DNA of 64,000 nt from Bacteroidota bacterium (GTDB taxonomy: Bacteria > Bacteroidota > Bacteroidia > Cytophagales > Cyclobacteriaceae), in assembly GCA_018266055.1 (NCBI GenBank), contig JAFDYT010000004.1:112893-176892 (forward strand), in the 5' to 3' direction. Every line of letters starts with the position of its first letter. The first letter of the stretch is position 1. This document shows positions 852 through 38,194 of the stretch, in pieces. A program made the position numbers and the translations under genes. The notes beneath the pieces are model-generated. The model was not told the origin of the DNA. It ran no database searches and was given only the letters and a program-made list of their open reading frames with translations.

Positions 852-2162
852 TTATATAGGTTCAGACGGTTTTGTCAATCCTCTTTCCTCGGCCGTTTCA
901 TAAATAGGAACAACGGGAAGAAATCGCACCAGCAAGGTGATGATCAGCAATGCACTCGCCAACGTAGCCGCAGTGATAGACCATTCCATCAGTGTGGGTG
1001 TGTAATGATGCCACGACTGAGGCACACCTTCAATGGGAAGGAATGGATGGCTAAGTGTAGGGATTACAATCAGGTAGCGTTTCCACCAGGCACCCAGCAC
1101 GACTGCCAGTGCCACCAGAAACAACGGAAGAGGTTTCCTGCCTTTGCGAAACAACAATATGATCACCGGAAGAATGAGTCCACCGATGATCACCGTCCAG
1201 AACAACCCTGCGTATTCTCCTTTGAATAAACTTTGAAGATGCATGGCCTCTTCTTCGGTGGATTTGTACGTGGGAATCAGGTACTCATTAATATTAAAAT
1301 ACAAATACAGCAGGCATAGCAGTACCAGCACTTTTCCCATTTTATCAAAATGATCGTCTGTGATATAATCCTCAAGGCTGTACAGTTTGCGAAGAACAAA
1401 CATCACCACCACCACTGCGCCAGATCCTGCTACAAATGCACCGGCAATAAAGTAGGGCCCGAAGTTGGTGCTGTCCCATCCCGGTCGGTAGGTAGTTTCA
1501 AACAGCCATGCCGTTACTGTGTGAATGGCAAACGCAACGGGGATGATCATAATAGATAAGGCCTGTAGCGATAGGGCGTGTATGCGAACTTGCTTTTCAT
1601 TGCCCGACCAGTTCAACGAAAGCCTGTCATACCATTTACTTAACCAGCCTTGTTGATCCGCGTGGCGTTTCAAAATGCTGAAATCGGGCAGTAGCGGATA
1701 GTACAACAATAGAAGGCTGATGACCAGGTAAGTTGTAATCACGATAACGTCCCAGAGGATGGGCGACTGAAGTCTGCCATGCAAGAATAAATTCAGAAGC
1801 CTATCAGGTCGGCCCATATCAATGATGATGGTAATGCCCGCCATGATGATGGCAGCGACAGCGATGATTTCTGCAATGCGCGTAAGCGGTGTGCTCCAAT
1901 GTACACCGGACAGTCGCAGGATGGCGGTGATCAACGAACCTACCAAACTCACGGCAACAAAGAAGACAAAATTGGAAATGTAAATGCCCCACAGCGCATA
2001 GTCTCGCATGCACGTTATAACCAATCCAGACTTAAGTTGCTGAACGTAGGAATACATTCCTGCGAGAATAACAACTACAAGAAAGGCAACCCAAGCATTT
2101 CCCTTCCAGCCAAATTTTTTTGGCGCTAGGTCATTGATCAGTTTTTCATAGGCTGTGTTCAT
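852..2162 (-). CDS. NrfD/PsrC-family polytopic membrane anchor (quinone-interacting) subunit
   Basis: 436 aa with about 10 hydrophobic helices. The N-terminal pattern WGIYISNFVFFVAVSLVGSL is typical of NrfD/PsrC. The start overlaps the stop of the upstream FeS gene (ATGA at 2159-2162). Confidence 0.8.
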   Translation of the reverse strand: MNTAYEKLINDLAPKKFGWKGNAWVAFLVVVILAGMYSYVQQLKSGLVITCMRDYALWGIYISNFVFFVAVSLVGSLITAILRLSGVHWSTPLTRIAEIIAVAAIIMAGITIIIDMGRPDRLLNLFLHGRLQSPILWDVIVITTYLVISLLLLYYPLLPDFSILKRHADQQGWLSKWYDRLSLNWSGNEKQVRIHALSLQALSIMIIPVAFAIHTVTAWLFETTYRPGWDSTNFGPYFIAGAFVAGSGAVVVVMFVLRKLYSLEDYITDDHFDKMGKVLVLLCLLYLYFNINEYLIPTYKSTEEEAMHLQSLFKGEYAGLFWTVIIGGLILPVIILLFRKGRKPLPLFLVALAVVLGAWWKRYLIVIPTLSHPFLPIEGVPQSWHHYTPTLMEWSITAATLASALLIITLLVRFLPVVPIYETAEERGLTKPSEPI

Positions 2163-3115
2163 GGCTCTTGTGGTTTATCGACTGATTGAAACTCAGTGTA
2201 ATTCTTCAGGCCTTCTTCGAAGTCAACTACTCTGTCGCTGGGTGGCAAATAATAGACACTCGGTTGCGTGCCCAGGTTTTCCATCAGCCGGTAGCCCGCG
2301 CGGTCTTTTAAAAGTTTACTCAGTTTGAAGGATTGACCGCTGCCGTTGGTCACGGTGTCTTCATACATATCGCCAAAACTGAACACATCATTGGGGCAAG
2401 CGCTCACACAATGCGGCAGCTCACCTTTGTCGATCATGTGTGGGCAGAAGTCACACTTATCTACCGTACCTTTTTGACTGGGTACACCAGCATAGTCAGG
2501 AGTATAGGCTGCTTCTTCAACATCCTTGCCTTGCCATGGCTCAGACCAATTGAACACCCGCACAGAATAAGGACACGCAGCCATGCAGAACCTGCAGCCG
2601 ATACATCGGTTGTTATCAATCAGCACAATGCCATCTCTTCGCTTGAACGTGGCATCCACCGGGCAAACCTTGACACAGGCTGGCTCATCGCAATGCTGAC
2701 ATAACGTAGGTTGCCAATACGGTGCAGACTTTTCAGATTCCTGCATCTTATAGATTTTGATCCACGCATTTTCTCCGGTGATGTAATGGTTTTTGTTGCA
2801 AGAGCTTTGGCACTTCCTGGCGTTTCGGCATTTAGCCAAATCAACCACCATCACAAATTTCCGGTTGGGAAATCCTTCGCGCGGATTGTAAGCCGATTTA
2901 CTTTCATGAGCATGCGAAACAGCCGAGGCCGGCACCTGCATCAACGTGCCATCGGTGGACATCAGCTCAACAGTTTCTGCTGATTCCGTACTTTCCGACT
3001 TTCCAAATACCTTGGTCAACAATGCTCCGCCCGCTGCGGTGAGTAAACCAAATTTCAAACCCTGCTCCACAAAGGTGCGCCTGGATTTCTGATCACTATT
3101 TTTTTCTTTTTCCAT
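2159..3115 (-). CDS. Tat-exported 4x[4Fe-4S] ferredoxin-type subunit (NrfC/PsrB/HybA-like)
   Basis: 318 aa. Twin-arginine leader SRRTFVEQGLKFGLLTAAGG. Cys clusters CRNARKCQSSC, CQHCDEPACVKVCP, CIGCRFCMAACP and CDFCPH...CVSACP. Confidence 0.85.
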   Translation of the reverse strand: MEKEKNSDQKSRRTFVEQGLKFGLLTAAGGALLTKVFGKSESTESAETVELMSTDGTLMQVPASAVSHAHESKSAYNPREGFPNRKFVMVVDLAKCRNARKCQSSCNKNHYITGENAWIKIYKMQESEKSAPYWQPTLCQHCDEPACVKVCPVDATFKRRDGIVLIDNNRCIGCRFCMAACPYSVRVFNWSEPWQGKDVEEAAYTPDYAGVPSQKGTVDKCDFCPHMIDKGELPHCVSACPNDVFSFGDMYEDTVTNGSGQSFKLSKLLKDRAGYRLMENLGTQPSVYYLPPSDRVVDFEEGLKNYTEFQSVDKPQEP

Positions 3116-3121
3116 AGGTTC

Positions 3122-3379
3122 CTATTTTGAAAAAGCTTTTGGTTTTAGCCAACTCAGCAGCGACTGGTTCGACATTTTTTGTTCAACGACCTTCGCATTT
3201 TTCAACTCGCTTGTTCGCACTTTTACAGCCTTGCCCTCTGCGGTAAGCATGGTTGTGAATTCGGTATCCTCCACTTTATCATCGGAAGGATTTGCCGGCA
3301 GTTTCCCTGCAACGCTCAGGAATGGGAGCGTGAGGCCTGCACCTAAAAATTTTCTTCGGGAGAGTGGATCGTTTTTCAT
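3122..3379 (-). CDS. Small Tat-signal protein of unknown function
   Basis: 85 aa. Leader SRRKFLGAGLTLPFLSVAG. The predicted mature part has no Cys or His. It sits 6 nt upstream of the FeS gene. Confidence 0.6.
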   Translation of the reverse strand: MKNDPLSRRKFLGAGLTLPFLSVAGKLPANPSDDKVEDTEFTTMLTAEGKAVKVRTSELKNAKVVEQKMSNQSLLSWLKPKAFSK

Positions 3380-3474
3380 GTGTTAATATTTATTTTTTAA
3401 GGTCACATGGAATGGCCGGATTATCATACCGTTGTGTGAGGAGCATCTTAATGGCCATTTCATGGGATTCATTT

Positions 3475-4314
3475 TTAAAAATTCCAAAGTCGGTTGATGT
3501 TGAATCCAATCAGGAATTGTCTTTCGGAGAGTTTATTTTCATTCAGGAAGTAATTGGCTTGTGGTAAAATGCGATTGTAGTTGCTCACAAAAACCTGAAA
3601 TGCGTGCGAGCCAGTTGACATTTCTATGCCAAGTGCCAGCCCAGGGTTACTCGAAAAATCACCAAAGGGTTGATTATAGTCGATGATGATTGCAGTCTTG
3701 TCGCTGATATTTGCTTTTCCACCCACAGCCAATGCAAACACATTGTTTGAAACGGAAGGATCGACAAGGTTGTAGTGCGCGAAACTGGGAGCAACCTGAA
3801 GTGATATGGCTTGGTTAAATCTTCTCATAATCAACAGTTGACCGAAATAAGAAAAACGATTGGATTCTTTGGGGAAGAAGGAAGCCGATCTTGCATCAAT
3901 GGCCGTGTTGCCATAAAAGGCGATGCTGACCGGTACTTTACCCGACCGCGTCTGGCGGATCAAACCCACTTTGATATTAAAATCCTGCAAGCGATAATCC
4001 TTGGTGGTACCAAACCCGATGGTGATGCGATCGGAAATGGAGTAAGCGAGCGCTAGCCGGATATTGGATGGCCCCCAAAAACCAGCTAAGTCATTGTTGC
4101 CACTGTTGATTAAACCAAAGCGATGTTGAATATCGAACTGCAACGTCTTCTTTGGGTTGAGAACACCCGTGACGTTGTCAATCAACCATGCACTTTGAAA
4201 GGCATTGCGCTGAGGTTTATCTTTTTTTTCTGCCAGTGAGTCGGCTTCCTGTGCAAACAGATTGTGAGACAATACTAAAAGAAGAATGAAAGAAAATGTA
4301 TTGAAGCGTTTCAT
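3475..4314 (-). CDS. Small outer-membrane beta-barrel protein (family not recognised)
   Basis: 279 aa. Signal peptide MKRFNTFSFILLLVLSHNLFAQ, alternating amphipathic strands, and a C-terminal NINRLWNF ending in an aromatic residue. Confidence 0.65.
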   Translation of the reverse strand: MKRFNTFSFILLLVLSHNLFAQEADSLAEKKDKPQRNAFQSAWLIDNVTGVLNPKKTLQFDIQHRFGLINSGNNDLAGFWGPSNIRLALAYSISDRITIGFGTTKDYRLQDFNIKVGLIRQTRSGKVPVSIAFYGNTAIDARSASFFPKESNRFSYFGQLLIMRRFNQAISLQVAPSFAHYNLVDPSVSNNVFALAVGGKANISDKTAIIIDYNQPFGDFSSNPGLALGIEMSTGSHAFQVFVSNYNRILPQANYFLNENKLSERQFLIGFNINRLWNF

Positions 4315-4334
4315 GATTGTATTATTTTAGTTTA

Positions 4335-4775
4335 TTAATTGTTTTGAGCACCTTCATCGATCCACTTTTTAATGAGCCCAATTTGCAAGGGCGAAAGAGG
4401 CATTGCGGGAGGCATATTTTTACCATCCGCGCTTTTCCACTGTAGCATCTCTACAAGTTCACTACCCTCGGAATCGCCCGGAACGATTCCTTTCCCATCG
4501 TCCAATAGAGAACTGAAGGCAACCTCCTTTCGCAAATCGGGGTTTACATTGCCGGGATTGTGACATCCGGCACATTGCCCGCTTAGAATTGGTTGAATGT
4601 CCAAGGCAAAAGAAACATTGTCTTTTACCGGTACTGATAGCTCGGGCGTTATTTTGTCATTGTCACACGCAGTGAGTAAAAAGCCTAAAGCCAGTGCTGA
4701 AGGCAAAATGATTTTGGTTGACGGTTTCATTTGTTTTGTATTTAGATTTATAAATCGTTTTATCGTTGTGTCCAT
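4335..4775 (-). CDS. Lipoprotein with a single c-type haem motif (cytochrome c domain)
   Basis: 146 aa. CAGCH haem-binding motif (SGQCAGCHNPG). Lipobox LLTAC. The likelier start is the internal MKPSTKIILPS at 4730. Confidence 0.7.
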   Translation of the reverse strand: MDTTIKRFINLNTKQMKPSTKIILPSALALGFLLTACDNDKITPELSVPVKDNVSFALDIQPILSGQCAGCHNPGNVNPDLRKEVAFSSLLDDGKGIVPGDSEGSELVEMLQWKSADGKNMPPAMPLSPLQIGLIKKWIDEGAQNN

Positions 4776-4797
4776 GTTTTATATAAGGTGGCGGTTC

Positions 4798-5898
4798 TCA
4801 CATTTTCATCCCACTCATCGCACCGCCACCTTGTTTTACTTTCCATGCGCTGTTTAGCAGAAAACCACCACGGGTCACTATCTTGTCGCCCGGTGATAGT
4901 CCGCTGAGTATTTCCACTTCGCGTTTGTTCTGAATGCCAATGTCCACCATGTGTTGTTCGAACATGCCGTCACTGGTTTCCACCCAAACGATTACGTTGT
5001 TTTCCAAAAGCAAGGCAGACTTGGGAATGACCAGGGTCTCTTTTCGGTTGCGCTTCAAGTACACATACGCCATCAGGCCAGGCTTATAATTTCCTTTCTG
5101 ATTGTTAACTTTGATGCGCATGAGATTGATCTTCGTGTTGTCCTCCAATCGCGGGTTATCGTACACAATCTCACCTTTGATGCGTTCGCCCGGAAAAGCT
5201 TCAAACTCCACTTCAAGTGTTGGTGACTGTCTTAGGTAATTGATTTCACTGCTGTACAATTGGGCTTCGATCCACAAACTACTTAAGTCTGCCAGCCTGA
5301 ACATGGGGCTACCGATCTCAACGTACTCACCCTCGCGCACGAGCAGGTCTGATAAATACCCACTGCGGTTAGAGTAGAAGGTGATCAGTGGAGAAATGCT
5401 TTTCGTCTTTTCAAGCTCGTTGATTTGTTTTTCCGTCAGCGTCCAAAGCTCAAGGCGTCTCCGGGCTGCTTCGACCATTCTTTGGGTAATCTCTTTTTGA
5501 GTAGTAGCTTTTTTATTTTCATCGATGGCCAGCAGGTATTCGTTTTCGTATGACAACAGTTCTTCGCTATAGATACTGTATAGTGGATCTCTGGTTTTTA
5601 CGAATGTGCCAGGGTTGCGCACAAATAGTTTGTCGACTCTGCCCTTTACACGGGAGCTGACTAGGTTGATGTTCCGTTCATCCACCGCTGCGGTGCCAAT
5701 CAAGGTTGTCTCTTCAAAGATTGTTTTGATTTGCGCATTGTCGATCTGAATGTTAGCCACGACTCTTTCCTGATCGGTTAACGAAAGCATCGCTTCATGC
5801 GCATCGCCATGTCCTTCGTGCGACTGTTCTGGTTTCTGTCTACAGGAGGCCGAGAGGGCGAGAATCAATAGGGTTATATAAATCGCATATCGTTGCAT
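4798..5898 (-). CDS. RND efflux periplasmic adaptor (MFP, CusB-like), lipoprotein
   Basis: 366 aa. Lipobox LALSASC, N-terminal HEGHGDAHE, hairpin/lipoyl/beta-barrel adaptor pattern, and a Met-rich tail GGGAMSGMKM. Confidence 0.8.
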   Translation of the reverse strand: MQRYAIYITLLILALSASCRQKPEQSHEGHGDAHEAMLSLTDQERVVANIQIDNAQIKTIFEETTLIGTAAVDERNINLVSSRVKGRVDKLFVRNPGTFVKTRDPLYSIYSEELLSYENEYLLAIDENKKATTQKEITQRMVEAARRRLELWTLTEKQINELEKTKSISPLITFYSNRSGYLSDLLVREGEYVEIGSPMFRLADLSSLWIEAQLYSSEINYLRQSPTLEVEFEAFPGERIKGEIVYDNPRLEDNTKINLMRIKVNNQKGNYKPGLMAYVYLKRNRKETLVIPKSALLLENNVIVWVETSDGMFEQHMVDIGIQNKREVEILSGLSPGDKIVTRGGFLLNSAWKVKQGGGAMSGMKM

Positions 5899-5901
5899 AA
5901 C

Positions 5902-7137
5902 TCACTCGGGTTTAACCAAACTTTCACGATCCATTAAGTAACCGGCATCCAGCGCCACCTCATCATCAGCCTCTAAGCCACTCAGTACAGCTACACGTCC
6001 TAGCGAAACCGGACCAAGCCTCACGAACCTGATTTCCAAAATGTGAGTACCTTCTTCGGTTTGCCCCACTTTTTTCCATACGGCCTGCCTTCCACCCAAA
6101 TACAGAATGCTGGTTGCAGGCAACGTCAACGACTCTTTTGTTTTTGGGTAGATGGTAGCTTCCAATAGCGAATTGATACGGAGGTTTCTATCTCCATTTG
6201 ATAGATACACTCGAACCTGAATGAACTTCTGACCTGTGGCATATTGTGGCTCGATGTATCGCACAATGGTCTTTATCGGTTTGTCAGGAGCCAACTCGCT
6301 CACCATTGTTATACTGTCGTTCATCGCTATTTCATCCTGATGAAGGTTGTCCACGGATAGAATACCCCACACCTCACGAAGGTCATTGATCCAAAAGAGC
6401 GTTTGCCCTGGCGAAACGTATGCTCCTTCACGGACTGGTCCGGACGCTGAAGTTGTAGAAGATGAAGTCTGCTGTTTTTGTTGGGAACCCGAACCCATGC
6501 CACCACCCATTTTACTTCCTGCTGAAGAAGTCATTGCTGTTCCCGTTGGGGGCATTTGGGTTGATGGGGAATAAAAAATATATCCGTCATACAGACTGTA
6601 GATGGAAAGTGTAAAGAGCGTTTTACCCGATTCGATAATTTGTTTTATTTGAGCATCGGTTATTCCAAGCAGTTTAAGTTTGTGAGCTGCATGTTTTGTA
6701 ATTTCACCTTCAGGGTCAACTCTATGTGCATACAGTAGTTCTTCCTGATTGGTGTTAAGGTCGGGGCTGTATAGTTCCAGTATTTTATCGCCTTTGCGCA
6801 CAAATTGATTTTCATATTTTACATAAAGCTTTTCGATGCGGCCACCCACCCGTGCTGCTACTTGGTTACTCCTGCGTTCATCAAGGGCAATAAATCCATA
6901 CGCGTTAACCGGACTTGATTGAAGTTGCTTTACCGGCTTTACTAACGCCTGGCTTGAAATAACTTTCCGGTTAGTTGGTTCCGCTGAAATGGAAAGCGCT
7001 TTTTGGCCTGCTTCATCTTGCGGATGGGTTCCATGTTTGCTGTGCTGATCGGGCGATTCTTTTTTACACCCGTAAAAGAGTATGGATAAACCGACCATTA
7101 TATATAGCGTGATTTTTTTCATGATGTTATTCTTCAA
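5902..7137 (-). CDS. RND efflux periplasmic adaptor (MFP, CusB-like), second paralogue
   Basis: 411 aa. Lipobox ILFYGC. Internal low-complexity insert GSKMGGGMGSGSQQKQQTSSSTTSASG. It overlaps the pump gene by 11 nt. Confidence 0.8.
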   Translation of the reverse strand: MKNNIMKKITLYIMVGLSILFYGCKKESPDQHSKHGTHPQDEAGQKALSISAEPTNRKVISSQALVKPVKQLQSSPVNAYGFIALDERRSNQVAARVGGRIEKLYVKYENQFVRKGDKILELYSPDLNTNQEELLYAHRVDPEGEITKHAAHKLKLLGITDAQIKQIIESGKTLFTLSIYSLYDGYIFYSPSTQMPPTGTAMTSSAGSKMGGGMGSGSQQKQQTSSSTTSASGPVREGAYVSPGQTLFWINDLREVWGILSVDNLHQDEIAMNDSITMVSELAPDKPIKTIVRYIEPQYATGQKFIQVRVYLSNGDRNLRINSLLEATIYPKTKESLTLPATSILYLGGRQAVWKKVGQTEEGTHILEIRFVRLGPVSLGRVAVLSGLEADDEVALDAGYLMDRESLVKPE

Positions 7138-9058
7138 TATCCAATACTTTGAGTGTTCCGGTTTTTTTCAATTCATATTCCCTCACCACCTGGTAGAATA
7201 CCGGCAGCACCACTAGCACGAAAATGGTAGAAGAGACCAAGCCGAACACAAACGGTATGGCAATAGGCTTCATCACATCACTGCCTGTGCCTGTAGAGAT
7301 GAGTATCGGGATTAATCCCAGGATGTTAGCCAGTACGGTCATCAGCAACGGCCTTACGCGTGGCACTGCGCCTTCGAAAATGGAGTCTTGCAAGTTTTGT
7401 CTATTGATGGACTCATTGGCAGCCTTCTTACTTTCCACTAGTCGTTTGATAGAATCATTCATGTAGGCGATCATCAAAACCCCCGTCTCTACAGCTACTC
7501 CGAACAAGGCGATAAATCCCACCGCTACTGCTACAGAAAAGTTTACGTTATAGAAGTACAAAGAGTAAACTCCGCCAACCAAGGCAACCGGTACGCTGAC
7601 AAACACAATGATTACTTCACGAAATGTGTGGAACGTGATGTATAAAATAATTCCGATAACCAACAGCGTAATGGGGATGATGATCATCAATCGTCTTTCG
7701 GCACGCACCTGGTTTTCGTACTGGCCGCTCCATTGGATATAGTAACCTTTGGGGAGTTTTTTAAATTGAGTATCGATTTTTGCTTTTGCTTCATTTACAA
7801 CGCTTCCCATATCGCGGCCCCGCACATTGAACAACACCGTTCCGCGAAGCCTCGTGTTTTCCGAATTGATCATGGGTGGCCCTTCTACTACTGAGATAGT
7901 GGCCAGTGCAGATAGGGGAACAACACCGTACGAGGCTGTTTGCACCGGCACACGCTTGATCTCATCGAGGTCGTTTCTGTAATCTTGTGCGAGTCTGACT
8001 GTAATAGTAAAACGCTCTCGTCCTTCAACTGTGTTTGTGAGGATCATACCACCCAAAGCCATTTCAATAACCATGTTCACATCTTCTATGCTGAGTGCAT
8101 AGCGGGCAATTGCTTCCCGGTTGATTTTTATATTGAGGTATTTCCCACCGGTGAGTTGCTCTAGATAGAGATCGGTTAGTCCGTCAATACCTCTTAGCGC
8201 TTTTTCAATTTCGGCCGTGAGGATGAATAGAGAGTCGAGGTTTGATCCGAATACCTTTACTCCAACATCCGTGCGGATGCCAGTAGAAAGCATGTTGATC
8301 CGGTTTATGATTGGCTGTGTCCATCCCACCACCACCCCGGGAATACGAACGCGCTCGTTCATCTCCGCGATGAGCTTTTCTTTCGTCATCCCTTCTCTCC
8401 ATTTTGATTTTGGTTTGAGCACCACAATGGTTTCAATCATGGACATGGGAGAGTTGTCGGTGGCTGTGTACGCACGGCCTGCCTTGCCCAATACATTTTC
8501 TACTTCGGGGATACTTTTTAATATGCGATCCTGTATTTGTATTATTCGTTTAGCTTCCGCGTTGGAAACATCAGGTAAGGTGACGGGCATCATCAGTAAC
8601 GAACCTTCATCCAGTGGTGGCATGAACTCGGTGCCAAGATTGAGTACAAAAGGAGTGCTGCCAGCAACCAGTACAAAGCAGATTGCGAGTGTTACATACT
8701 TAAATCGCTGGCACAGGCGTATAACCGGTGTATAAATCCTCACAAAGAAGTTCGACACCGGATTGCGGCTCTCCGGTACTAACCGTCCTTTTACAAATAC
8801 CCTCGCCAGCATGGGCGATACGGTGATGGCCAACAAGGCCGCACCCAGCAGCGAAAATGTTTTGGTCAATACCAACGGAGAAAATAATTTGCTTTCTTGG
8901 CCTGTGAGGAAAAGAACCGGGGCAAATGAGACGATCATAATGATCACCGAGAAGAAGATAGATCGTCCAACAGTTTTGGATGACTCTTCTATAATGGCCA
9001 CACGCTCTTCATCAGAAATTTCCCGCGTGTTCCCAATTCGTTGTTTACTTGTTGCCAT
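7127..9058 (-). CDS. cusA: CusA/CzcA-family heavy-metal RND pump, C-terminal fragment (TM5-TM12) of a frameshifted gene
   Basis: 643 aa, collinear with the CusA region that starts at the TM4-TM5 cytoplasmic loop (FFSVIIMIVSFAPVLFLTGQESKLF ... VRPLLMTVLANILGLIPIL). Confidence 0.85.
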   Translation of the reverse strand: MATSKQRIGNTREISDEERVAIIEESSKTVGRSIFFSVIIMIVSFAPVLFLTGQESKLFSPLVLTKTFSLLGAALLAITVSPMLARVFVKGRLVPESRNPVSNFFVRIYTPVIRLCQRFKYVTLAICFVLVAGSTPFVLNLGTEFMPPLDEGSLLMMPVTLPDVSNAEAKRIIQIQDRILKSIPEVENVLGKAGRAYTATDNSPMSMIETIVVLKPKSKWREGMTKEKLIAEMNERVRIPGVVVGWTQPIINRINMLSTGIRTDVGVKVFGSNLDSLFILTAEIEKALRGIDGLTDLYLEQLTGGKYLNIKINREAIARYALSIEDVNMVIEMALGGMILTNTVEGRERFTITVRLAQDYRNDLDEIKRVPVQTASYGVVPLSALATISVVEGPPMINSENTRLRGTVLFNVRGRDMGSVVNEAKAKIDTQFKKLPKGYYIQWSGQYENQVRAERRLMIIIPITLLVIGIILYITFHTFREVIIVFVSVPVALVGGVYSLYFYNVNFSVAVAVGFIALFGVAVETGVLMIAYMNDSIKRLVESKKAANESINRQNLQDSIFEGAVPRVRPLLMTVLANILGLIPILISTGTGSDVMKPIAIPFVFGLVSSTIFVLVVLPVFYQVVREYELKKTGTLKVLDIEE

Positions 9059-10334
9059 CGTTCGGTTGGGTTAGAAGTACTTTGTTTGTTAATGACCGGT
9101 AAGCATTTTCGGCCATTACAATTCCCGGATCAACGACATCGCCAATGGCCAAGGCAATTCCACCCAACGACATAATGTTGGACGTTACTCCAAAAAGCCG
9201 CATGAGTATGAAGCCAATGAGCACCGAGAGCAGAATAGAAGCAATGGCTACCAAGCCGCTTCTGAAATGGAATAGAAAGAGCACTACCGTAACCGATACA
9301 ATTAGGATCTCCTGCCACAATGCTTCTGAAAGAGTATCGATTGAGTCATTGATGAGTCCACTGCGGTCGTATGCAACATGAAACTCAACTCCTTCAGGAA
9401 GGCCCTTCTTAAATTCCTCTATTCTCACCTTCACGCGCTCGATCACATCTTTGGCATTCTCGCCATAGCGCATCACAACAATTCCGCCAACCGCTTCACC
9501 TTCCCCGTTTTCTTCGATGATACCCAATCTTAATTCACCACCCATCTGGATATGGGCAACGTCCTTCAACCGAATTGGTATAGAGCGATACGTTCCAACA
9601 GAAATGTTCTCAATATCTTCTGGTGTTTTGATGTACCCAAGCCCGCGGATCATGTAGCCCATGTCGTTCATCTCAAAGAGACTGCCTCCTACATCACGGT
9701 TATTATTGACAACCGCTTTCGCTACATCCATCAAGGGCACTCCATAATAAATGAGTTTATGCGGGTCAATGGCTACCTGGTATTGTTTTTGAAATCCTCC
9801 GTATGAGGCCACCTCGCTTACCCCTTTTACATTCTGGAGGGCAAACTTTACATACCAGTCCTGCAAGGCTCGCAATTCACCGAGGTTATAGCCATCTCCT
9901 TTTAATGTGTACCAGAATATGTGGCCGATGCCCGTGCCATCGGGGCCAAGGGTAGGGGTGATGCCGGGCGGAAGAAATTTCTGTGCATAGTTCAGTCGTT
10001 CTAATACCCGAGTACGCGACCAATAGATTTCCGCATCGTCCTCGAAAATGACGAAGATGAAACTCATGCCGAACATGGAGGCGGCACGTATGGTTTTTAT
10101 TTTGGGAATGCCCTGCAGGTTGGTAACCAGTGGATACGTGATCTGGTCTTCCATGATCTGCGGGTTGCGCCCCATCCATTCGGTGAACACAATCACCTGG
10201 TTTTCGGACAGATCGGGAATGGCGTCCACCGGGGTTTCTTTGATGGAATAAATTCCACCAATAACAATCATCACAATCCCGATTAAAACCATAAATCGAT
10301 TGTGAATTGCCCAACTGATTATTTTTTCTACCAT
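9045..10334 (-). CDS. cusA: CusA/CzcA-family heavy-metal RND pump, N-terminal fragment (TM1-TM4)
   Basis: 429 aa. MVEKIISWAIHNRFMVLIG start and the conserved TM4 motif GGIALAIGDVVDPGIVMAEN. It ends in a different frame 14 nt inside the next ORF. Confidence 0.85.
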   Translation of the reverse strand: MVEKIISWAIHNRFMVLIGIVMIVIGGIYSIKETPVDAIPDLSENQVIVFTEWMGRNPQIMEDQITYPLVTNLQGIPKIKTIRAASMFGMSFIFVIFEDDAEIYWSRTRVLERLNYAQKFLPPGITPTLGPDGTGIGHIFWYTLKGDGYNLGELRALQDWYVKFALQNVKGVSEVASYGGFQKQYQVAIDPHKLIYYGVPLMDVAKAVVNNNRDVGGSLFEMNDMGYMIRGLGYIKTPEDIENISVGTYRSIPIRLKDVAHIQMGGELRLGIIEENGEGEAVGGIVVMRYGENAKDVIERVKVRIEEFKKGLPEGVEFHVAYDRSGLINDSIDTLSEALWQEILIVSVTVVLFLFHFRSGLVAIASILLSVLIGFILMRLFGVTSNIMSLGGIALAIGDVVDPGIVMAENAYRSLTNKVLLTQPNDGNK

Positions 10335-10383
10335 AACTTAGTTGTAAAAATCGTGTTGTGTGCCCAAGCACTATTAAATAATT

Positions 10384-10413
10384 CTGTCTATTTGTTATAC
10401 TTTACTGTCTATT
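10384..10413 (-). promoter_or_regulatory. Direct repeat CTGTCTATT x2 at 21-bp spacing, between the AraC-HMA gene and cusA
   Basis: Copies at 10384-10392 and 10405-10413 are identical 9-mers. They sit 50-80 nt upstream of the cusA start at 10334. Confidence 0.45.
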
Positions 10414-10428
10414 GCCAAGTCGATGATG

Positions 10429-11211
10429 TTAATGTTGACAGATTAGATAACCTTTGCTTCCTTTCGTATCTTCGATCGTATAGATTGCATTTTGCCCAAG
10501 TGCGTTTGGGCTTTCATCAAATCGGTATACTTCTTTTATGCTCATGCCTTTGGCTTTTTTCATATTGCCGGCCCCAACAATTTTGTTATCATGAATGTCA
10601 AAAGCACGCACATACCCTTTGGCGTGTATTTCTGAGAGCACTTCCATCAGCGATTGGTTGCGATGCTCCGTTCGTTGAAGTTTTTTAAACTCGCGCACCG
10701 AAAAGCCCGTAACCTTTCTGAATTGTGAAGAAAGGTGCTGCACATTGGTGTAGTGTAGCCTGTCCGCAATTTCACTAAGTGTTGATTGACCTTCGCGCAA
10801 TAGTCTTTTTGCTCGTTCAACGCGCTGCCGGATAAGGTATGCCTCAATAGTAATTTTCTCTACTCGCTTAAATAGCTTACTGAGGTTATGGTAATTTCTC
10901 GATAGCCTTTTGCCGAGGTGTACCGAGAATTTCTCTACCCTGTCAAGTCGCTCCAGTTCATCTAGATATCTTTTTGCCTCAAGTTTAATCGCCTCGGTAG
11001 TTTGCTCATCCTTGGTGTGAATGATTTGAAGATTAAATTCATTCAATCTCTTTTCCAGCAAGGGTAGAATATGGTCATTGTCCGATAAAAAGGATACCTG
11101 CCCGAGTTCAATCTTGACGCGTACCACATTGAACTGATTTAAAATCTGCCGCACCACGTAAATGCAGCGATCGCAAAGCATGTTTTTAATATGCAACTTG
11201 AATATTTTCAT
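10429..11211 (-). CDS. AraC-family regulator with an N-terminal HMA-like CxxC domain and an extra C-terminal domain
   Basis: 260 aa. The N-terminus is MKIFKLHIKNMLCDRCIYVVRQIL. The AraC HTH region is LSEIADRLHYTNVQHLSSQFRKVTGFSVREFKK. A further ~75 aa of unknown function follow. Confidence 0.8.
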   Translation of the reverse strand: MKIFKLHIKNMLCDRCIYVVRQILNQFNVVRVKIELGQVSFLSDNDHILPLLEKRLNEFNLQIIHTKDEQTTEAIKLEAKRYLDELERLDRVEKFSVHLGKRLSRNYHNLSKLFKRVEKITIEAYLIRQRVERAKRLLREGQSTLSEIADRLHYTNVQHLSSQFRKVTGFSVREFKKLQRTEHRNQSLMEVLSEIHAKGYVRAFDIHDNKIVGAGNMKKAKGMSIKEVYRFDESPNALGQNAIYTIEDTKGSKGYLICQH

Positions 11212-11349: not shown

Positions 11350-11877
11350 TTAAATAAGAAACGTACAGAGAAGAATACGGAGATATTGGCCAGTGTGCAA
11401 TAGTCCAGGTGGGCCATTTGCATGATTATTGTTTGGAGAAAATCTTGTAAGGTTATCAAGTAAGTTCTCATTCAAAACACATGGAAGCATGAATATCTTG
11501 ATGAGCCGCAATTCCAACGAGTGACCCAAACTATTTAATGTAGAAGGCGCATTGGCTAGGGTAGAATAGAACGCCCGAGTCAGATCATCACAGCAGCCTC
11601 CGTCTTTGTCGGTTGCGTTATGATCATGCTTGCCGGTACCGTGATCGTGCGATGGGTGGCTCTCGGCCTTATTCTGATGATGATGATTGGTATGTTTTTT
11701 ATCAGAATGACTATGGGCTGTGGATTTTGATATGCGTGAAGGCCGAACCGTTTGAAAAGAAATTAACCCCACATCGCAGAGAAAGTCACAACTCAAAACC
11801 GATACCATGGACAAAATGACAATCCCTGCCAAGGAACACCTAAACTTCCGTATGGTTTTGAGGCTTATCATTTCCAA
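11350..11877 (-). CDS. His/Cys-rich membrane-anchored putative metal-binding protein
   Basis: 175 aa. TM helix LAGIVILSMVSVLS, then CDFLCD, then HSHSDKKHTNHHHQNKAESHPSHDHGTGKHDH and GGCCDD. The start may be the MISLK methionine at 11871. Confidence 0.5.
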   Translation of the reverse strand: MEMISLKTIRKFRCSLAGIVILSMVSVLSCDFLCDVGLISFQTVRPSRISKSTAHSHSDKKHTNHHHQNKAESHPSHDHGTGKHDHNATDKDGGCCDDLTRAFYSTLANAPSTLNSLGHSLELRLIKIFMLPCVLNENLLDNLTRFSPNNNHANGPPGLLHTGQYLRILLCTFLI

Positions 11878-23368: not shown

Positions 23369-24574
23369 TTACTCTTCTTCTTCCGAGTTTTTCATTTTAG
23401 AGAGAATGGCATACGCATTCTTCACTACCACCTGATTGTCTGCGTTAAAATCAGGCGGAAGGATTACTTCAGTATAGCCCATTTCACTGTTTCCTACTTG
23501 TATTTCCATCATTGTAAAATGAAACTCGCTGGCGTGTTGCTCTTTGCTTTCGTCTTTTAATGCGCTGTGGGGCTGCTCTTTCAATTGGTAGAAAATGTAT
23601 TTTTTCCCTTGATAGTCAATGATGGCTTTATCCGGCAAGGCTGGCACTTCGATGCCGCCCGTTTCAACAACAGCCTTCAGGTACATGCCCGGCAGCAAGT
23701 TGGTATCTTCTCTATCAATGTGGCAGTGAACACGTATGGTGCGATCAAGTCCGATTTGGCGACCCAACAAATACACGGTGGCCATTCTTTCCTTGGTTTC
23801 GTTGGCAAGAGTGAACCGAACTTTTTGTCCGATCTTCAGTTTGGGCACATCTTTCTCGAATACAGTAAGTTCAGCGTGCAAGTGCTCGGTATCAACAATT
23901 TCGAACAGGATGTCACTGGGGTTTACAAATTTGCCGATGTTGACGTTCACCTGCGTGACGTAACCATTGATGGGCGAGTAGAGTTGGATGGTGCTTGAAA
24001 TTTTCCCCTCATTTAAGGAGGAGAGGTTAATGTTTATCATTTTCAATTTTTCGGCAAGGCCGTTAGCTTTTGCTTGCCAACTTGCGTACGTTGTTTTGGC
24101 TTGTTGCAATGTCTTTTGGGCATTCACGTTTTCTTTCGCCAAATCTAGTTGCCGATCGTAATCCACTTTAGCAAAGTCAGATTGATTTTTAGCTTCTATG
24201 TAATCTTGTTGCATTTGTATGAAATCAAGATTTTCCATAGTTGCAATCGCCTGGCCTACCTTTACTCTTGATCCTTGCAGCAACGGTGTACTTTTTAAAA
24301 ATCCTCCCAGCGGAACGGAAATGCTGACCATCTGCTGAGGGGGCACATCCAGTTTGCCATTTACTTTTACCGTGCCGCTGATTTGTTTGCTTTCAATTTT
24401 GCCCAATTCAATGCCGGCCGTTTTGTATTGAGCTTCGGTGAACTCCACGGTATTCGCTTCTTCGCTGTGATGCTCTTCGGTGGTCGCCTCTTTTGCGCTC
24501 TTGCTTCCGCACGACATAGTTAAAGCTACTCCAATAAAAATGGAGAGTATAGAAATTGATTTAGATGTAGTCAT
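23369..24574 (-). CDS. czcB: RND efflux periplasmic adaptor (CzcB-like)
   Basis: 401 aa. Lipobox LTMSC, N-terminal EEHHSEE, and adaptor hairpin and barrel regions. Confidence 0.8.
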   Translation of the reverse strand: MTTSKSISILSIFIGVALTMSCGSKSAKEATTEEHHSEEANTVEFTEAQYKTAGIELGKIESKQISGTVKVNGKLDVPPQQMVSISVPLGGFLKSTPLLQGSRVKVGQAIATMENLDFIQMQQDYIEAKNQSDFAKVDYDRQLDLAKENVNAQKTLQQAKTTYASWQAKANGLAEKLKMININLSSLNEGKISSTIQLYSPINGYVTQVNVNIGKFVNPSDILFEIVDTEHLHAELTVFEKDVPKLKIGQKVRFTLANETKERMATVYLLGRQIGLDRTIRVHCHIDREDTNLLPGMYLKAVVETGGIEVPALPDKAIIDYQGKKYIFYQLKEQPHSALKDESKEQHASEFHFTMMEIQVGNSEMGYTEVILPPDFNADNQVVVKNAYAILSKMKNSEEEE

Positions 24575-24582
24575 GGTCGATC

Positions 24583-25809
24583 TTATTTAGTGCCTGATAA
24601 AAATTGAATGTAAATAATGCTTTGGTTGTAGTCGTTTAAGGTTTGTAAATAACCTTCCTTAATGGCAATGGCATTTCGTACCCCCAGCAGATATACGGCA
24701 AAGTCAATTTCGCCCTCGCGAAAGGCAACTTGCGATTGCTTCAGTATCAGTTCTGCATTTGGTAAAGCGGAAGTGCGGTAATACTCCAAACTGTTTCGAT
24801 TCTTTCCATACAGTTGCGCAGCCTGTTGTGATTGTCCCTGTATGATTTTCTGCTGATTGGCGTAATTACTTTCCGCAGCCTGACGGGTAAAGGCTGCGGC
24901 CTTCACTCTGCCCTGATACGGAACAAACCACAGTGGAATGGAGATACCTGCGAAGAACCCGGAGAACCTGGTGTTGTCGTTAGCCACTGTTCCGTTCTCA
25001 ACGTTGATCGTATTGATCAGTGTTTGATTGAAATACCCGATCATTAAATCGGGGGCGAACTTTGCCGTTTCCACTTTCTTCAGGCTTTTCGCTACGTCTA
25101 CTTGCTGCCGCACATACGACAGAAAAGGGTTTGTGAGTATCGTTGTGTCTTGCGATGCATCGAATGGAATCTCGGTTAGCTCATCTTCCGAAATGTCCGG
25201 AAGTTGCTCACTGTTGAGTAGCGTCTGCAATTGCGTACGCAAAATGGTGGCCGTTGATTCATTTTGGCGAAGTTGATTTCTCACCTCATTACGTTGTGTT
25301 TCAGCGGTGGTTTGCTCCAATAGTTTGCTTTCACCCGTCTTGTAGCGTAATGAAGCCGACTTTAAGAACCCTTCGTAAATGCTGTCTTGCTGAAGCAAGA
25401 GTTGATGTCGCGCTTTTACAAAGGCAAGTTGATAGTAAACTTGCTTTACCTGATAAACCAAGTCGTTTTCAGTAAATGCTTTTTTCAATTCAGATGAAGC
25501 AAGCAACGATCGGTTCAGGGAGGCTTGGCTGCCTAAAATGGTAAGAGGAATACTTTGTGTAATGGAAATGTTGTTATCATTTTTAGCAAAGCTATTATAC
25601 TGCCCATACTGCAACGACACATTCGTCTTGGGCAGATCAAATCCTGTTTTCTTCAATTGCCTTTGCGATTCCACTTCATAAGCTACCGCCCTGATGCCCG
25701 CGTTATTTTTTAAAGCGACATCAATGGCTTGTTGAACTGTTAACTTGGTGGACTGGCCAAGCCCCGCAAAAGAGAAACTAGTAATGGTGATGATGATTAA
25801 TATTCTCAT
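24583..25809 (-). CDS. czcC: TolC-family outer-membrane efflux factor (CzcC-like)
   Basis: 408 aa. Signal peptide and a two-fold repeated coiled-coil/beta pattern. It overlaps the pump gene by 4 nt. Confidence 0.8.
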   Translation of the reverse strand: MRILIIITITSFSFAGLGQSTKLTVQQAIDVALKNNAGIRAVAYEVESQRQLKKTGFDLPKTNVSLQYGQYNSFAKNDNNISITQSIPLTILGSQASLNRSLLASSELKKAFTENDLVYQVKQVYYQLAFVKARHQLLLQQDSIYEGFLKSASLRYKTGESKLLEQTTAETQRNEVRNQLRQNESTATILRTQLQTLLNSEQLPDISEDELTEIPFDASQDTTILTNPFLSYVRQQVDVAKSLKKVETAKFAPDLMIGYFNQTLINTINVENGTVANDNTRFSGFFAGISIPLWFVPYQGRVKAAAFTRQAAESNYANQQKIIQGQSQQAAQLYGKNRNSLEYYRTSALPNAELILKQSQVAFREGEIDFAVYLLGVRNAIAIKEGYLQTLNDYNQSIIYIQFLSGTK

Positions 25810-28800
25810 ATCGAAGGCGTATTTATTTTCTTAGAACCAATTTTTTCAAAATAGATAAACAGGCAAGGCAGTACGATCAGGGTAAGAAGTGTTGAGCTGA
25901 TCAACCCTCCGATCACCACGGTGGCCAAGGGTTTTTGCACTTCAGCTCCTGCGCTGGTCGCCAATGCCATCGGCAAAAAACCAAGCGAGGCAACCGCGGC
26001 CGTCATTAACACGGGGCGAAGGCGCACGGAAGTTGCCTTTAATATGATGTCATGCAAATCGGTTATGCCATCTTTTTTCAAGCGGTTGAACTCAGCGATG
26101 AGTACAATTCCGTTCAACACGGCTACCCCGAAAAGTGCGATAAAGCCTATGCCTGCAGAAATACTGAACGGCATGCCACGAAAAAGCAGCGCGAAGATTC
26201 CCCCAATCGCTGACATAGGAATAGCGGTGAGGATAAGGACGGATTGCTTTAGCGAACCAAACGTGAAGAACAGCAGCATTAAAATAAGCAACAGCGCAAC
26301 GGGTACTGCTATCGACAACCGTGCCTTTGCTTCTTTCAGGTTTTCAAATTGCCCACCGTAGGTCGGAAAATACCCTGGCGGAAAATCAACCTGGTTTGTA
26401 ATTTTCTGCTGCAACTCTTCAACAATGCTCTCCACATCGCGTCCTCGCACATTAAAACCTACAATTATTCTTCGCTTTGCATCTTCACGTTGAATCTGAT
26501 TCGGCCCGATTTTGAATTCGACATCGGCTAACTGTTTCAAGGGAATCTGCTCGCCCTTCGGGGAAGAAATGAATAAGTTGCGCACATCTTCAATACTTTG
26601 GCGGCTTTGTGAACTGAGACGAACGGTGAGGTCATATCTTCTTTCGCCTTCGAACACCAACCCGGCTGCTTGCCCTGCAAAGGCTGTATTAATAACCTGG
26701 TTAATATCAGCGATGTTCAGACCATACTTGGCTACCTCATCGCGGTTTATAGTGATTACGATTTGCGGCAAGCCGGTAACTTTCTCTACATATAGGTCGC
26801 GCGCACCCGCTACACTTCCTGCAATTTTTCCAATCCGTTCTGATAGATCGGTAAGGACATTAAGGTCTTCGCCAAAAATTTTAATTGCAACATCTTGTCG
26901 CACGCCTGTCATCAGCTCATTGAATCGCATTTGAATGGGCTGTTGGAATCCAAACGTTACCCCAGGAATTTCTTCTAATGCCTCTCCCATTTTATCGGCA
27001 AGTTCTACTCTGTCAGCGGCTTTTTTCCATTCACTTTTATCTTTTAGGATTACCATCATATCGCAGGCCTCAATAGGCATAGGGTCGGTAGGAATTTCGG
27101 ATGAACCAATTTTGCCGACTACTTCTTTTACCTCGTCAGGAAACTCACGCAACAAAATTTGTGCACCCTTGGAGGCAGTCTCTATAGTATACGACAAACT
27201 ACTTCCGGTAAGTGCTCTGGTTTCTACGGCAAAGTTCCCTTCTTCCAATGTGGGAAGAAATTCGCCCCCCATTCTCATAAAGAAAATGAGGCTTACCAAG
27301 AAGAGGATAACAGATGAAATGACTACAACAAACTTGTGCTTTAGTGCTCTATTGATTATTGGTTCATACACTCGATGAAAAAAGTCCATCATTCTATCAG
27401 AGAAATTGCGTCTATGCTCAGTGTTCTTGCTCAGAAAAAGAGCCGACATCATCGGCACATAAGTAAGTGACAGAAGGAATGCGCCAAGGATAGCAAAGCT
27501 AACGGTCTGGGCCATCGGCTTAAACATTTTACCCTCAATGCCAACCAGCGCAAGAATGGGCAGGTAAACGATCAGAATGATAATCTCACCAAAAGCTGCC
27601 GATGTCCTTATTTTAGAAGCTGATTGGTAAACTTCCAAATCCATTTCTTCTTTCGTCAAGCGGATGGCTCCTCGTAAGCTTAGGTGATGCATCGTAGCTT
27701 CTACAATAATTACGGCCCCATCCACAATCAAACCAAAATCAATAGCACCCAAACTCATCAAGTTGCCGGATACACCAAAGACATGCATGAGAGATACCGC
27801 AAACAGCATGGCCAATGGAATGACGGAAGACACTATCAAGCCCGCTCGCAGATTGCCAAGGAATAAAACCAGAACGAAAATTACAATTAGAGCACCCTCA
27901 ATTAAATTCTTTTCAACAGTGCCCACAGCGCGGTTCACCAATGCGCTCCGGTCAAGAAAGGCTTCAATGGTTACACCTTCGGGCAATGTTTTTTTGATTT
28001 GCTCCATCTTTTGTTTTACGCGATTCACAACAGCGTTGGAGTTTGCACCTTTCAGCATTAAGGCGGTAGCACCTACTACTTCACCTTCTTTGTTATAGGT
28101 CATGGCTCCATAGCGGTTGGCAAACCCAAAGTGCACCTCCGCCACATTGCGTATAAGAACGGGGATACCGGCTGCCGTATTTTTAACTACAATCTTTCCG
28201 ATGTCATCTACGGAATTGATAAGCCCTTCGCTGCGGATAAACCAGGCGTTTGGGTTCCTATCTATGTAAGCGCCCCCTGTATTTTGATTGTTCTTTTCGA
28301 GTGCAGTGAAAATGTCTGCGATGCCCAGATCATAGCTGCGAAGTTTATCGGGGTCAAGCGCTATTTCATATTGCTTTAAAAGGCCCCCAAAGCTTGCGAC
28401 ATCAGCTACACCTGGTGTGCCCAGCAACTGCCTACGCACGATCCAATCTTGGATGCTACGAAGTTCCATCGCGCTGAACTTGTCCTCATAACCTTTCTTT
28501 GGTCGAATGATGTATTGATAAATCTCGCCAAGCCCTGTACTTATTGGAGCCAGTTCGGGAGAGCCCATGCCCGGTGGGATTTGCTTTGCTGCTACCGTCA
28601 ATCTTTCGCTGACTTGCTGACGCGCCCAGTAAACATCAATGTTGTCATGAAAAACAATTGTGACAACTGAAAGGCCGAACCTCGAAAAGCTCCGCATCTC
28701 TTTAATATCTGAAATGGTTGACATTGTTAGCTCTACGGGAAAGGTTACGAGCCGCTCAATATCCAGCGCGGATTGAGAGGGAGCTATCGTGATGATCTGT

Positions 28801-38005: not shown

Positions 38006-38077
38006 AACAGTATGAGTTAAGGTTACCTCGTTCCTAAGCGGAGCAGTAAATCAATCGAAAGACCTTACGTAAGATTC

Positions 38078-38122
38078 TGTGACCAATATACCTGATAGGC
38101 ATTGGTCACAGGATTGGTCACA
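38078..38122. repeat. 10-mer ATTGGTCACA in three copies (one inverted, two direct) upstream of the integrase
   Basis: TGTGACCAAT at 38078-38087, then 13 nt, then ATTGGTCACA at 38101-38110, then GG, then ATTGGTCACA at 38113-38122. Confidence 0.6.
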
Positions 38123-38194
38123 AATCAGATGGTTTTGTTTGTTGTTTTATGAGTTCGCCACCTTTGAAATTGAGCGAAAACATAAGGTGTGAAA

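Follow-up and report, generated by a model that had tools for sequence, protein, structure and literature searches.

A CusA-type pump in two pieces beside an NrfD-type redox cassette in a Cyclobacteriaceae bacterium

The systems described so far that come closest to the locus reported here fall into two sets. On the side of metal efflux are the Escherichia coli pump CusCFBA and TriABC–OpmH of Pseudomonas aeruginosa, an RND pump with two distinct adaptors and an outer-membrane factor encoded elsewhere, whose TriC is a single-chain triclosan (drug) pump of HAE1 type. On the redox side are alternative complex III (ACIII, ActABCDEF), the NrfCD, DsrOP and NosGH modules, the MtrCAB and Cyc2 conduits, and CcoG, an iron–sulfur (Fe–S) cupric reductase upstream of the Cu(I) exporter CcoI. 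We analysed a stretch of 64,000 nucleotides (nt), here called the window, from contig JAFDYT010000004.1 of a Bacteroidota bacterium (Cyclobacteriaceae; GenBank assembly GCA_018266055.1), with positions 852–11211 of its minus strand as the feature under study. The gene string found there resolves into a CusA-type pump (module A) and a redox cassette built around an NrfD-family subunit (module B), which an initial annotation had described as an electron-transfer chain welded to a metal pump. We favour, with moderate confidence, a different reading: two self-sufficient modules, a Cu(I)/Ag(I) pump and a menaquinol:cytochrome c cassette, are juxtaposed and co-regulated by a CxxC-bearing AraC-family protein.

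Like CusCFBA, the pump has CusB-type adaptors and a C-terminal fragment that, among solved structures, matches CusA of E. coli best (E = 1e-154) and keeps the methionine triad, and CusF genes lie beside homologous split operons. Unlike CusCFBA, it consists of two polypeptides cut in the loop between transmembrane helices 4 and 5 (TM4–TM5) and has two different adaptors; its operon contains neither a CusC nor a CusF gene, and its regulator is of AraC type rather than CusRS. TriABC–OpmH, likened here by description, shares two non-identical adaptor genes in one RND operon and an outer-membrane factor encoded elsewhere, whereas its single-chain drug pump contrasts with the split metal-type pump of the window.

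The cassette shares with ACIII an ActC-type NrfD subunit that aligns over its full length (E = 6e-50), an Fe–S protein matching the C-terminal Fe–S part of ActB, a monohaem lipoprotein cytochrome c as in ActE and, by analogy, an expected quinol:cytochrome c activity. Unlike ACIII, the window string has no pentahaem ActA, no molybdopterin-like ActB1 domain and no second NrfD (ActF), and carries as extras an Ig-like anchored subunit, a small twin-arginine (Tat) protein and an outer-membrane barrel. NrfCD, DsrOP and NosGH also combine a Tat-exported four-cluster ferredoxin with an NrfD subunit and no molybdopterin catalytic subunit; by analogy with them, electrons would be handed to periplasmic c-type cytochromes, and DsrO is the best NCBIfam match of the Fe–S protein. 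Unlike these modules, the cassette scores below the relevant cutoffs (DsrO, 191.9 against 200 bits; DsrP, 149.4 against 350 bits), so that neither equivalog assignment applies, and it has its own conserved partner set in place of NrfAB, DsrMKJ or NosZ; no DsrMKJ genes were found near the window cassette. The MtrCAB and Cyc2 conduits resemble the cassette in that a cytochrome c gene adjoins a barrel gene and, in other lineages, an MtrC-like hexahaem cytochrome gene lies directly upstream. They differ in their barrels (16–26 strands, against 12–14 here), the cassette cytochrome is monohaem and no cytochrome–barrel fusion occurs among the best 120 DUF5777 homologues. The lipoprotein cytochrome, in which C-DNDK is similar to an export signal of Bacteroidota lipoproteins, may be exposed at the surface. 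With CcoG–CcoI the likeness would lie, by analogy, in the logic of an Fe–S protein reducing Cu(II) for a Cu(I)-specific transporter, whereas CcoG works on the cytoplasmic side with a P1B-ATPase and has no sequence relationship to the cassette. The cassette resembles ACIII or NrfCD/DsrOP, yet is a member of none.

Pump and cassette as separable modules

The neighbourhood highlighted by the initial annotation recurs more often than expected by chance, its pump–cassette order being shared by 10 loci from genomes and 8 from metagenomes; the combined form was met in metagenome-assembled genomes only. Viewed from the pump side, a metagenome scan with adaptor 2 yielded 10 informative close relatives, 8 of which have the cassette directly downstream of adaptor 2. 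L098 and L099 carry a gene for a 211-amino-acid (aa) lipoprotein in the cassette slot, followed by Mrr_cat and ATPase genes, and L099 has no cassette although its AraC regulator is the same and its pump N-fragment is 95% identical. The order is adaptor 2, Mrr_cat and P-type ATPase in L090, L092 and L093, and adaptor 2, cassette and Mrr_cat in L001, L100 and L103; the cassette occupies a slot of variable content flanked by adaptor 2 and Mrr_cat.

Viewed from the cassette side, a scan of 185,579 species genomes for NrfD relatives returned at least 588 stretches, of which the best 80 loci were kept, compared by tblastn with the window proteins and used for clustering of all their open reading frames (ORFs). 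Upstream neighbours were counted in the 54 loci that had enough upstream sequence. Directly upstream of the cassette we found the pump with its adaptors in 9 loci, the AraC regulator in 3, haem or YceI types in 36 and other genes in 6, leaving 45 informative loci with an upstream neighbour other than the pump. Every combination of regulator, pump and cassette occurs: all three in the window, L003, L006, L009, L015, L095, L100, L101 and L104; regulator and pump in L099; regulator and cassette in L008, L014 and L023; the pump with neither regulator nor cassette in L092; and the cassette by itself in L013 and Belliella. Because of this, pump and cassette are evidently separable modules, not one welded machine. 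A neighbour-joining tree of NrfD placed all pump-linked loci in one Cytophagales clade; interspersed among them are L008, L014 and L023 and one Ignavibacteria locus devoid of both pump and regulator.

These distributions bear on the possibility that the string encodes one dedicated machine for redox-coupled metal export, in which a pump devoid of its own outer-membrane factor depends on quinol-linked Cu(II)/Cu(I) conversion in the periplasm. The cassette follows adaptor 2 at once (gaps of 18–80 nt) in 8 of the 10 close pump relatives, a Met-triad pump binds the reduced ion only, the regulator motif is common to both modules, His-rich and Met-rich envelope proteins accompany the cassette in the Cytophagales clade, and CcoG upstream of CcoI offers a precedent, all of which would suit such a machine. 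The claim that the redox genes are welded to the pump nevertheless fails on the 45 of 54 cassette loci without an adjoining pump, which include most lineages, on the near-identical pumps of L098 and L099, which share the regulator but have no cassette, and on L092. In addition, no copper-binding catalytic subunit is identifiable among the cassette proteins, and conserved Cys, His or Met ligands are missing from its cofactor-less subunits. We regard a dedicated machine as unlikely, and give obligate redox-coupled metal export a similarly low or slightly lower probability.

The copper-related setting that had been suspected held up better: the CusA methionine triad is kept, CusF and multicopper oxidases lie by homologous pumps, and the flanks are His- and Met-rich. 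Since a His-rich lipoprotein, the AraC motif and a Met-rich barrel accompany the cassette in the Cytophagales clade, it appears to belong there to a metal-flavoured regulon, whether the pump is present or not; the copper-type flanks of the clade (His-rich upstream, Met-rich downstream) are likewise independent of the pump.

The ORF map of the window and Pfam and NCBIfam profile searches bore out the eleven packed, co-directional genes and the identities first given to them (Table 1). Junctions are overlaps or gaps of 3–95 nt, the largest being those between the AraC and RND genes (94 nt) and between the barrel and Tat protein genes (95 nt). The families that the initial annotation had named for profile searches (NrfD, Fer4, cytochrome c, HlyD and ACR_tran) gave matches, the cytochrome c match being weak. 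Several labels needed adjustment. AraC helix–turn–helix domains were matched in the supposed AraC–HMA regulator, whereas its HMA part went undetected by Pfam or hhalign; the protein annotated with four [4Fe–4S] clusters does have four cluster motifs, with 15 rather than 16 cysteines; and the CAGCH cytochrome keeps both its haem motif and its LLTAC lipobox, with a corrected start, probably at the ATG at 4730 as in relatives. The last gene, said to run off the window, has its stop codon outside and is otherwise complete, with 282 codons both here and in the closest genome, Flammeovirgaceae bacterium UBA5008 (L003; approximately 90–93% DNA identity).

Table 1. Features of the pump–cassette string and its upstream flank (window coordinates)
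Feature	Position	Strand	Characteristics
His-rich putative lipoprotein	11350..11877	-	H-rich stretch and GGCCDD motif; upstream of regulator, just outside 852-11211
AraC-family regulator	10429..11211	-	HTH_18 and HTH_AraC matches; N-terminal CxxC domain (HMA-like, putative); unassigned C-terminal domain
Candidate operator or promoter element	10376..10406	-	Conserved intergenic motif AGTAAAGTATAACAAATAGACAGAATTATTT downstream of regulator gene
RND pump N-fragment, 429 aa	9045..10334	-	TM1, first periplasmic loop, TM2-TM4; ACR_tran 1-415
RND pump C-fragment, 643 aa	7127..9058	-	TM5-TM12 and second periplasmic loop; ACR_tran 418-1021; CusA Met triad
Adaptor 1, 411 aa, CusB-type	5902..7137	-	HlyD_D23, HlyD_3 and HlyD_D4 matches; Met/Gly/Ser-rich insert, His-rich N-terminus
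Adaptor 2, 366 aa, CusB/CzcB-type	4798..5898	-	HlyD_D23, E = 5e-56; His-rich N-terminus, Met-rich C-terminus
Monohaem cytochrome c lipoprotein	4335..4775	-	CAGCH; lipobox LLTAC, then DNDK; weak PSCyt1 and Cytochrome_CBB3 matches
DUF5777 outer-membrane beta-barrel	3475..4314	-	DUF5777, E = 5e-72; C-terminal ...RLWNF
Small twin-arginine-signal protein, 85 aa	3122..3379	-	SRRKF motif; no Cys, no His; presumed accessory subunit
Tat-exported poly-ferredoxin (Fe-S protein), 318 aa	2159..3115	-	Fer4_11; four cluster motifs, 15 Cys
NrfD-family membrane subunit, 436 aa, ActC-like	852..2162	-	NrfD, E = 4e-28; quinol-interacting (predicted)
Signal-peptide protein with two Ig-like domains and C-terminal membrane helix	1..848	-	282 codons; stop codon just past window edge

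The CusA-type pump in two pieces

The two pump fragments jointly cover the complete RND fold, with its 12 TM helices and two periplasmic loops, spanning positions 1–423 and 428–1039 of TIGR00914 in addition to the two parts of ACR_tran (Table 1). Singly they score 466 and 616 bits against TIGR00914, below its 701-bit cutoff because each is partial. In place of a single polypeptide of approximately 1,040 aa, the pump is thus made of two chains whose genes overlap by 14 nt. In a phmmer alignment to CusA (3T51), the positions of the Cu(I)/Ag(I) triad (M573, M623 and M672) are all aligned to Met. The cut follows ACR_tran position 415 and lies in the cytoplasmic TM4–TM5 loop, not between the pseudo-symmetric halves. 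Eight relatives with clean sequence have the same break, an ATG of their own for the C-fragment, overlaps of 8–23 nt and differing junction sequences; in a ninth (L015), an apparent fusion is caused by an ambiguous N base. The N-fragment has its best 120 homologues in Pontibacter, Daejeonella and Chitinophagales, among others; all of them are about 415–460 aa long, and hence likewise split.

Values of dN/dS are 0.02–0.04 on both fragments (0.03 on the N-fragment). Because the split is conserved in 9 of 9 relatives and dN/dS is this low, the pump is not a pseudogene, and the division of CusA is a conserved natural arrangement. Of the annotation 'cusA in two pieces', the two ORFs are real and damage is excluded; a pseudogene or sequencing frameshift is ruled out by the conserved split, the separate start codon, the split homologues and the dN/dS values. 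The same evidence answers the proposal that the pump is a frameshifted pseudogene for which the DUF5777 barrel serves as substitute outer-membrane channel. Two overlapping ORFs for one cusA, an operon devoid of an OEP gene and a barrel gene downstream could prompt that idea, which is effectively excluded: the split family is widespread with varied junctions, the barrel has 12–14 strands like NanC, FapF and OmpG, not TolC, and it travels with the cassette rather than the pump. DUF5777 as a TolC substitute is ruled out by this fold and association and by L092, which has neither an outer-membrane factor nor a barrel.

Both adaptors match HlyD_D23, the CusB barrel-sandwich domain (E = 5e-56 and 8e-43), giving two CusB-type proteins instead of one; adaptor 2 also scores 113 bits against TIGR01730, over its cutoff, and adaptor 1 was paired with adaptor 2 in each split-pump operon that we looked at. 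No match to OEP, the outer-membrane factor family, was found among the genes in 852–11211, in agreement with the initial annotation of a pump string without a TolC/CusC-type gene; an OEP gene lies at 24583–25809, inside the second RND operon of the window. Homologous split operons in Pontibacter, Daejeonella, L089, L090 and L093 have the order RND-N, RND-C, OEP, adaptor a, adaptor b. The outer-membrane factor gene has been lost from the window-type pump, homologues having kept it between pump and adaptors. This loss is independent of the cassette because L092 has a split pump with neither. Homologous split pumps often adjoin genes for CusF, multicopper oxidases and HMA proteins, and after their operons there is usually an Mrr_cat gene and one for a P-type ATPase.

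Several further features of this pump family were seen. In L090, L092, L093, L098, L099 and L001, the genes consistently following the split-pump operon encode an Mrr_cat/ATP-cone protein and a P-type ATPase of 887 aa with Cation_ATPase_N and Cation_ATPase_C domains, not of the heavy-metal P1B type. A small ArsR/SmtB-like regulator gene lies directly upstream of RND-N in L004 (1366–1884), L007, L010 and L089 (9664–9954), where it stands in for, or adds to, the AraC regulator. In the Pontibacter loci L085 and L086, a split-pump operon complete with its outer-membrane factor is immediately preceded by genes for a small multihaem cytochrome and an FAD/NAD/2Fe–2S oxidoreductase (5408–8895), a second, independent instance of redox genes adjoining this pump family. 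A gene call of 1457–1521 aa with both ACR_tran and OEP (L001/L002, 20116–21317) is either an RND/outer-membrane-factor fusion or a gene-calling artefact. Synonymous divergence between the window and L003 is a mosaic: saturated in AraC, 1.16 in the RND N-fragment and 0.07–0.44 from the RND C-fragment through NrfD, which suggests a recombination breakpoint within the pump region.

The redox cassette and its neighbours

Module B comprises seven genes, for a lipoprotein cytochrome c, the DUF5777 barrel, the small Tat protein, the Fe–S protein, NrfD, the Ig-like anchored subunit and a second cytochrome c. Each of these co-directional families occurs in 55–80 of the 80 genome loci, which come from Cytophagales, Flavobacteriales, Chitinophagaceae and Ignavibacteria. 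Typical sizes are about 127 aa for the lipoprotein cytochrome c, 88 aa for the Tat protein and 285 aa for the Ig-like protein. In relatives the Ig-like gene is followed by that of the second monohaem cytochrome c (about 134 aa), often with DUF3144 after it; in the window this gene appears to lie just outside the edge.

The NrfD subunit, 70–86% identical to 13 aligned sequences, has as its best PDB matches the ActC chains 6LOD_C, 6F0K_C, 8K9E_C and 6BTM_C (E = 6e-50 to 4e-46). Among solved structures, the Fe–S protein comes closest to ArrB and PsrB and to ActB in its C-terminal part; given its 15 cysteines, not 16, one cluster may be 3Fe–4S or have a non-Cys ligand. The lipoprotein cytochrome family is present in 63 of the 80 loci, with one CxxCH in 51 of 64 members. 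The DUF5777 protein, whose family occurs in 67 of 80 loci, was modelled with AF2 as a barrel of 12–14 strands (pLDDT 86.5), in which H64, H180 and H237 are invariant; none of its best 120 homologues is much longer than 280 aa or has a domain besides DUF5777. The Ig-like gene follows NrfD in 65 of 80 loci and also in tandem paralogous modules; weak matches to Big_1 and MG4 were obtained for 14 and 8 of 25 relatives, respectively, and a profile search of the PDB gave spurious ubiquitin matches only. The small Tat protein (55 + 8 of 80 loci) matched no Pfam or NCBIfam family and has no cofactor ligand among its conserved residues; neither it nor the Ig-like protein has conserved Cys, His or Met ligands. 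The Tat protein and the N-terminal extension of the Fe–S protein also share a short motif (EFTTMLTAEGKAVKV and VELMSTDGTLMQV, respectively), kept across the family as EEY-x-TLL-x-DG-x-x-VKV, which may be a docking hairpin used twice.

In the 36 loci with haem or YceI types, the genes upstream of the cassette are for cytochromes (MtrC-like hexahaem or dihaem c), for EB_dh haem-binding proteins or for YceI, singly or combined. The hexahaem gene was found in L032 (304–1380), L081 (6167–7252) and 12 other loci; its product matches MtrC/MtrF domain II/IV and begins with a lipoprotein-like signal, next to which, still at the N-terminus, comes a collagen-like G-x-D repeat. In the Flavobacteriaceae loci L033, L055, L058, L060, L075 and L081, two or three tandem Fe–S/NrfD/Ig/cytochrome c modules follow the first cassette, often with hemA nearby. 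In the Cytophagales clade and Belliella baltica, the cassette is followed by a Met-rich small barrel. This OMP_b-brl_2 barrel lies after DUF3144 (L003, 13018–13722; L091, 14998–15723; other Cytophagales loci), and its Met-rich stretch (GMGMDMNMY...) is reminiscent of Cu(I)-binding Met motifs. The Belliella cassette (B. baltica DSM 15883, Belba_1305 region of CP003281) lies between IS21, integrase and MerT/HMA genes; Eudoraea adriatica DSM 19308 is another strain with the cassette alone.

Such partners raise the possibility that pump and cassette are accidental neighbours, a general branch of respiratory or extracellular electron transfer having landed in a slot of a metal-resistance island with no functional or regulatory tie to the pump; electrons would then run from quinol through cytochrome c and end at a terminal oxidase or at Fe(III)/Mn(IV) reductases on the cell surface. 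In keeping with this are the haem proteins encoded upstream in Flavobacteriales and Chitinophagales (MtrC-like hexahaem, dihaem c and EB_dh types), where hemA lies downstream, the variable slot after adaptor 2, the position of the Belliella cassette between IS21 and integrase, and the island-like window with integrases at 36.7–39.6 kb. An orphan NrfCD pair without a catalytic subunit has also been proposed, in the Melioribacter genome paper, to feed periplasmic cytochromes for Fe(III) reduction (PMC3534657). The regulator, motif and His-rich lipoprotein genes, however, directly precede the cassette in the pump-free loci L008, L014 and L023, so the link between regulator and cassette is independent of the pump, and the pump–cassette junction is kept in at least 18 loci with saturated synonymous divergence. 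This explanation, too, seems to us unlikely.

A probable common regulator, the proposed mechanism and its significance

The regulator has an NM-x-C-[DE]-R-C motif that is invariant in 10 relatives. Its gene is followed by a conserved intergenic motif (ATTAAAGTATAACAnAnAGnCAnAATT), which a strict pattern located exactly once per locus, directly after the AraC gene, in the pump-linked loci L003, L006 and L015 and in L008, L014 and L023, where the cassette comes directly after the regulator. The window (approximately 10376–10406) and L009 have close variants missed by the strict pattern. The same motif follows the AraC gene whether pump or cassette comes next, and may act as an operator or be part of a promoter. 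In 10 Cytophagales loci, a gene of the His-rich lipoprotein family precedes that for AraC, again with or without the pump and including the three loci with regulator and cassette only; 9 of the 10 members have a lipobox-like signal, and the window protein matched no Pfam family.

We propose that the split CusA with its two different CusB-type adaptors would export Cu(I)/Ag(I) and, having lost its own outer-membrane factor gene, must borrow a channel encoded elsewhere. The cassette would be a stripped-down analogue of ACIII, in which the ActC-like NrfD subunit takes electrons from menaquinol, the Tat-exported poly-ferredoxin relays them, and two monohaem c-type cytochromes, the lipoprotein one encoded beside the DUF5777 barrel, receive them; the small Tat protein and the Ig-like anchored protein would be cofactor-less subunits. 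As a menaquinol:cytochrome c oxidoreductase, it would direct electrons to the outer membrane. The slot between adaptor 2 and the Mrr and P-type ATPase genes is where the cassette lies in one Cytophagales lineage, and both modules would be read there from the promoter region after the CxxC-bearing AraC regulator. Because both would be read from that region, they probably respond together, with copper or silver as the most likely inducer. The weakest step is that the electrons would serve envelope copper handling, for example reduction of Cu(II) to Cu(I), the form bound by the Met-triad pump.

The junctions 4798/4775, 4335/4314 and 3475/3379 are short (22, 20 and 95 nt). A scan for sigma-70 promoters and terminators, which does not cover Bacteroidota promoters, detected no site in these gaps and overall no excess over shuffled sequence. 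An Rfam scan of 1–12.5 kb gave matches at chance level only, and a repeat search of the locus gave nothing meaningful. A perfect TTGACA-16-TATAAT (12/12) is present at 851–878 on the minus strand, inside the 3' end of NrfD and shortly before the start of the Ig-like gene. Since promoters of Bacteroidota normally follow another consensus, the match is of doubtful meaning.

Several points weigh against the two-module reading with common induction. The putative metal-binding domain of the regulator gave no Pfam match to HMA even at E values up to 10; hhalign against the HMA domain of the window ATPase aligned 20 columns around CxxC only (probability 6%), and a single-sequence AF2 model with a beta-alpha-beta-beta-alpha-beta arrangement was of low confidence (pLDDT 59.5) and uninformative in a Foldseek search. 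The Bacteroidetes −7 element TAnnTTTG does not occur on the coding strand of 1–12.3 kb. Co-transcription is suggested only by short gaps and synteny, and the direction of electron flow only by the ActC analogy. The Fe–S protein scores nearest DsrO, not ActB. Finally, no metal-related neighbours of the cassette were seen outside the Cytophagales clade, so a copper role, if any, would be lineage-specific. A stronger variant, in which the cassette represents a novel type of metal oxidoreductase in the envelope, ACIII-like and driven by menaquinol, that feeds the two-piece CusA with no outer-membrane factor of its own and so makes metal export redox-coupled and powered by the respiratory chain, strikes us as improbable; we are equally doubtful that, in the Cytophagales lineage, such an enzyme would reduce Cu(II) to Cu(I) or set the Cu/Ag redox state at the interface of periplasm and outer membrane.

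Further along the window, positions 12102–36000 have the look of a metal or stress island, with a TauE exporter, an FA_hydroxylase fused to DUF2147, Rhodanese and metallo-beta-lactamase genes, two P-type ATPases (one with an HMA domain) and a DHOR dihaem oxidoreductase; the complete second RND operon, including its OEP gene, spans 23369–28940. Two tyrosine integrase genes (36746–38005 and 38418–39599) are followed by genes for a phage terminase large subunit and a VapE/primase, and 36746–47701 is likely to be an island or prophage boundary adjoining the metal genes.

Among the papers searched, we found none on DUF5777 and no description of this cassette or of a split CusA pump, and a review of NrfD proteins does not list this NrfD group (PMC8076601). 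The cassette appears to be an undescribed, widespread ACIII-like complex of Bacteroidota and Ignavibacteria with its own barrel and lineage-specific haem partners, and could be an unrecognized branch of respiratory or extracellular electron transfer. If the modules are merely neighbours, the value of the locus is a catalogue of two uncharacterized families, not a new mechanism. The split CusA, cut after TM4 and served by two adaptors, is a natural experiment on the assembly of RND protomers, and one putative metal-sensing regulator placed, in one lineage, before both modules makes the role of the respiratory chain in envelope copper handling testable.

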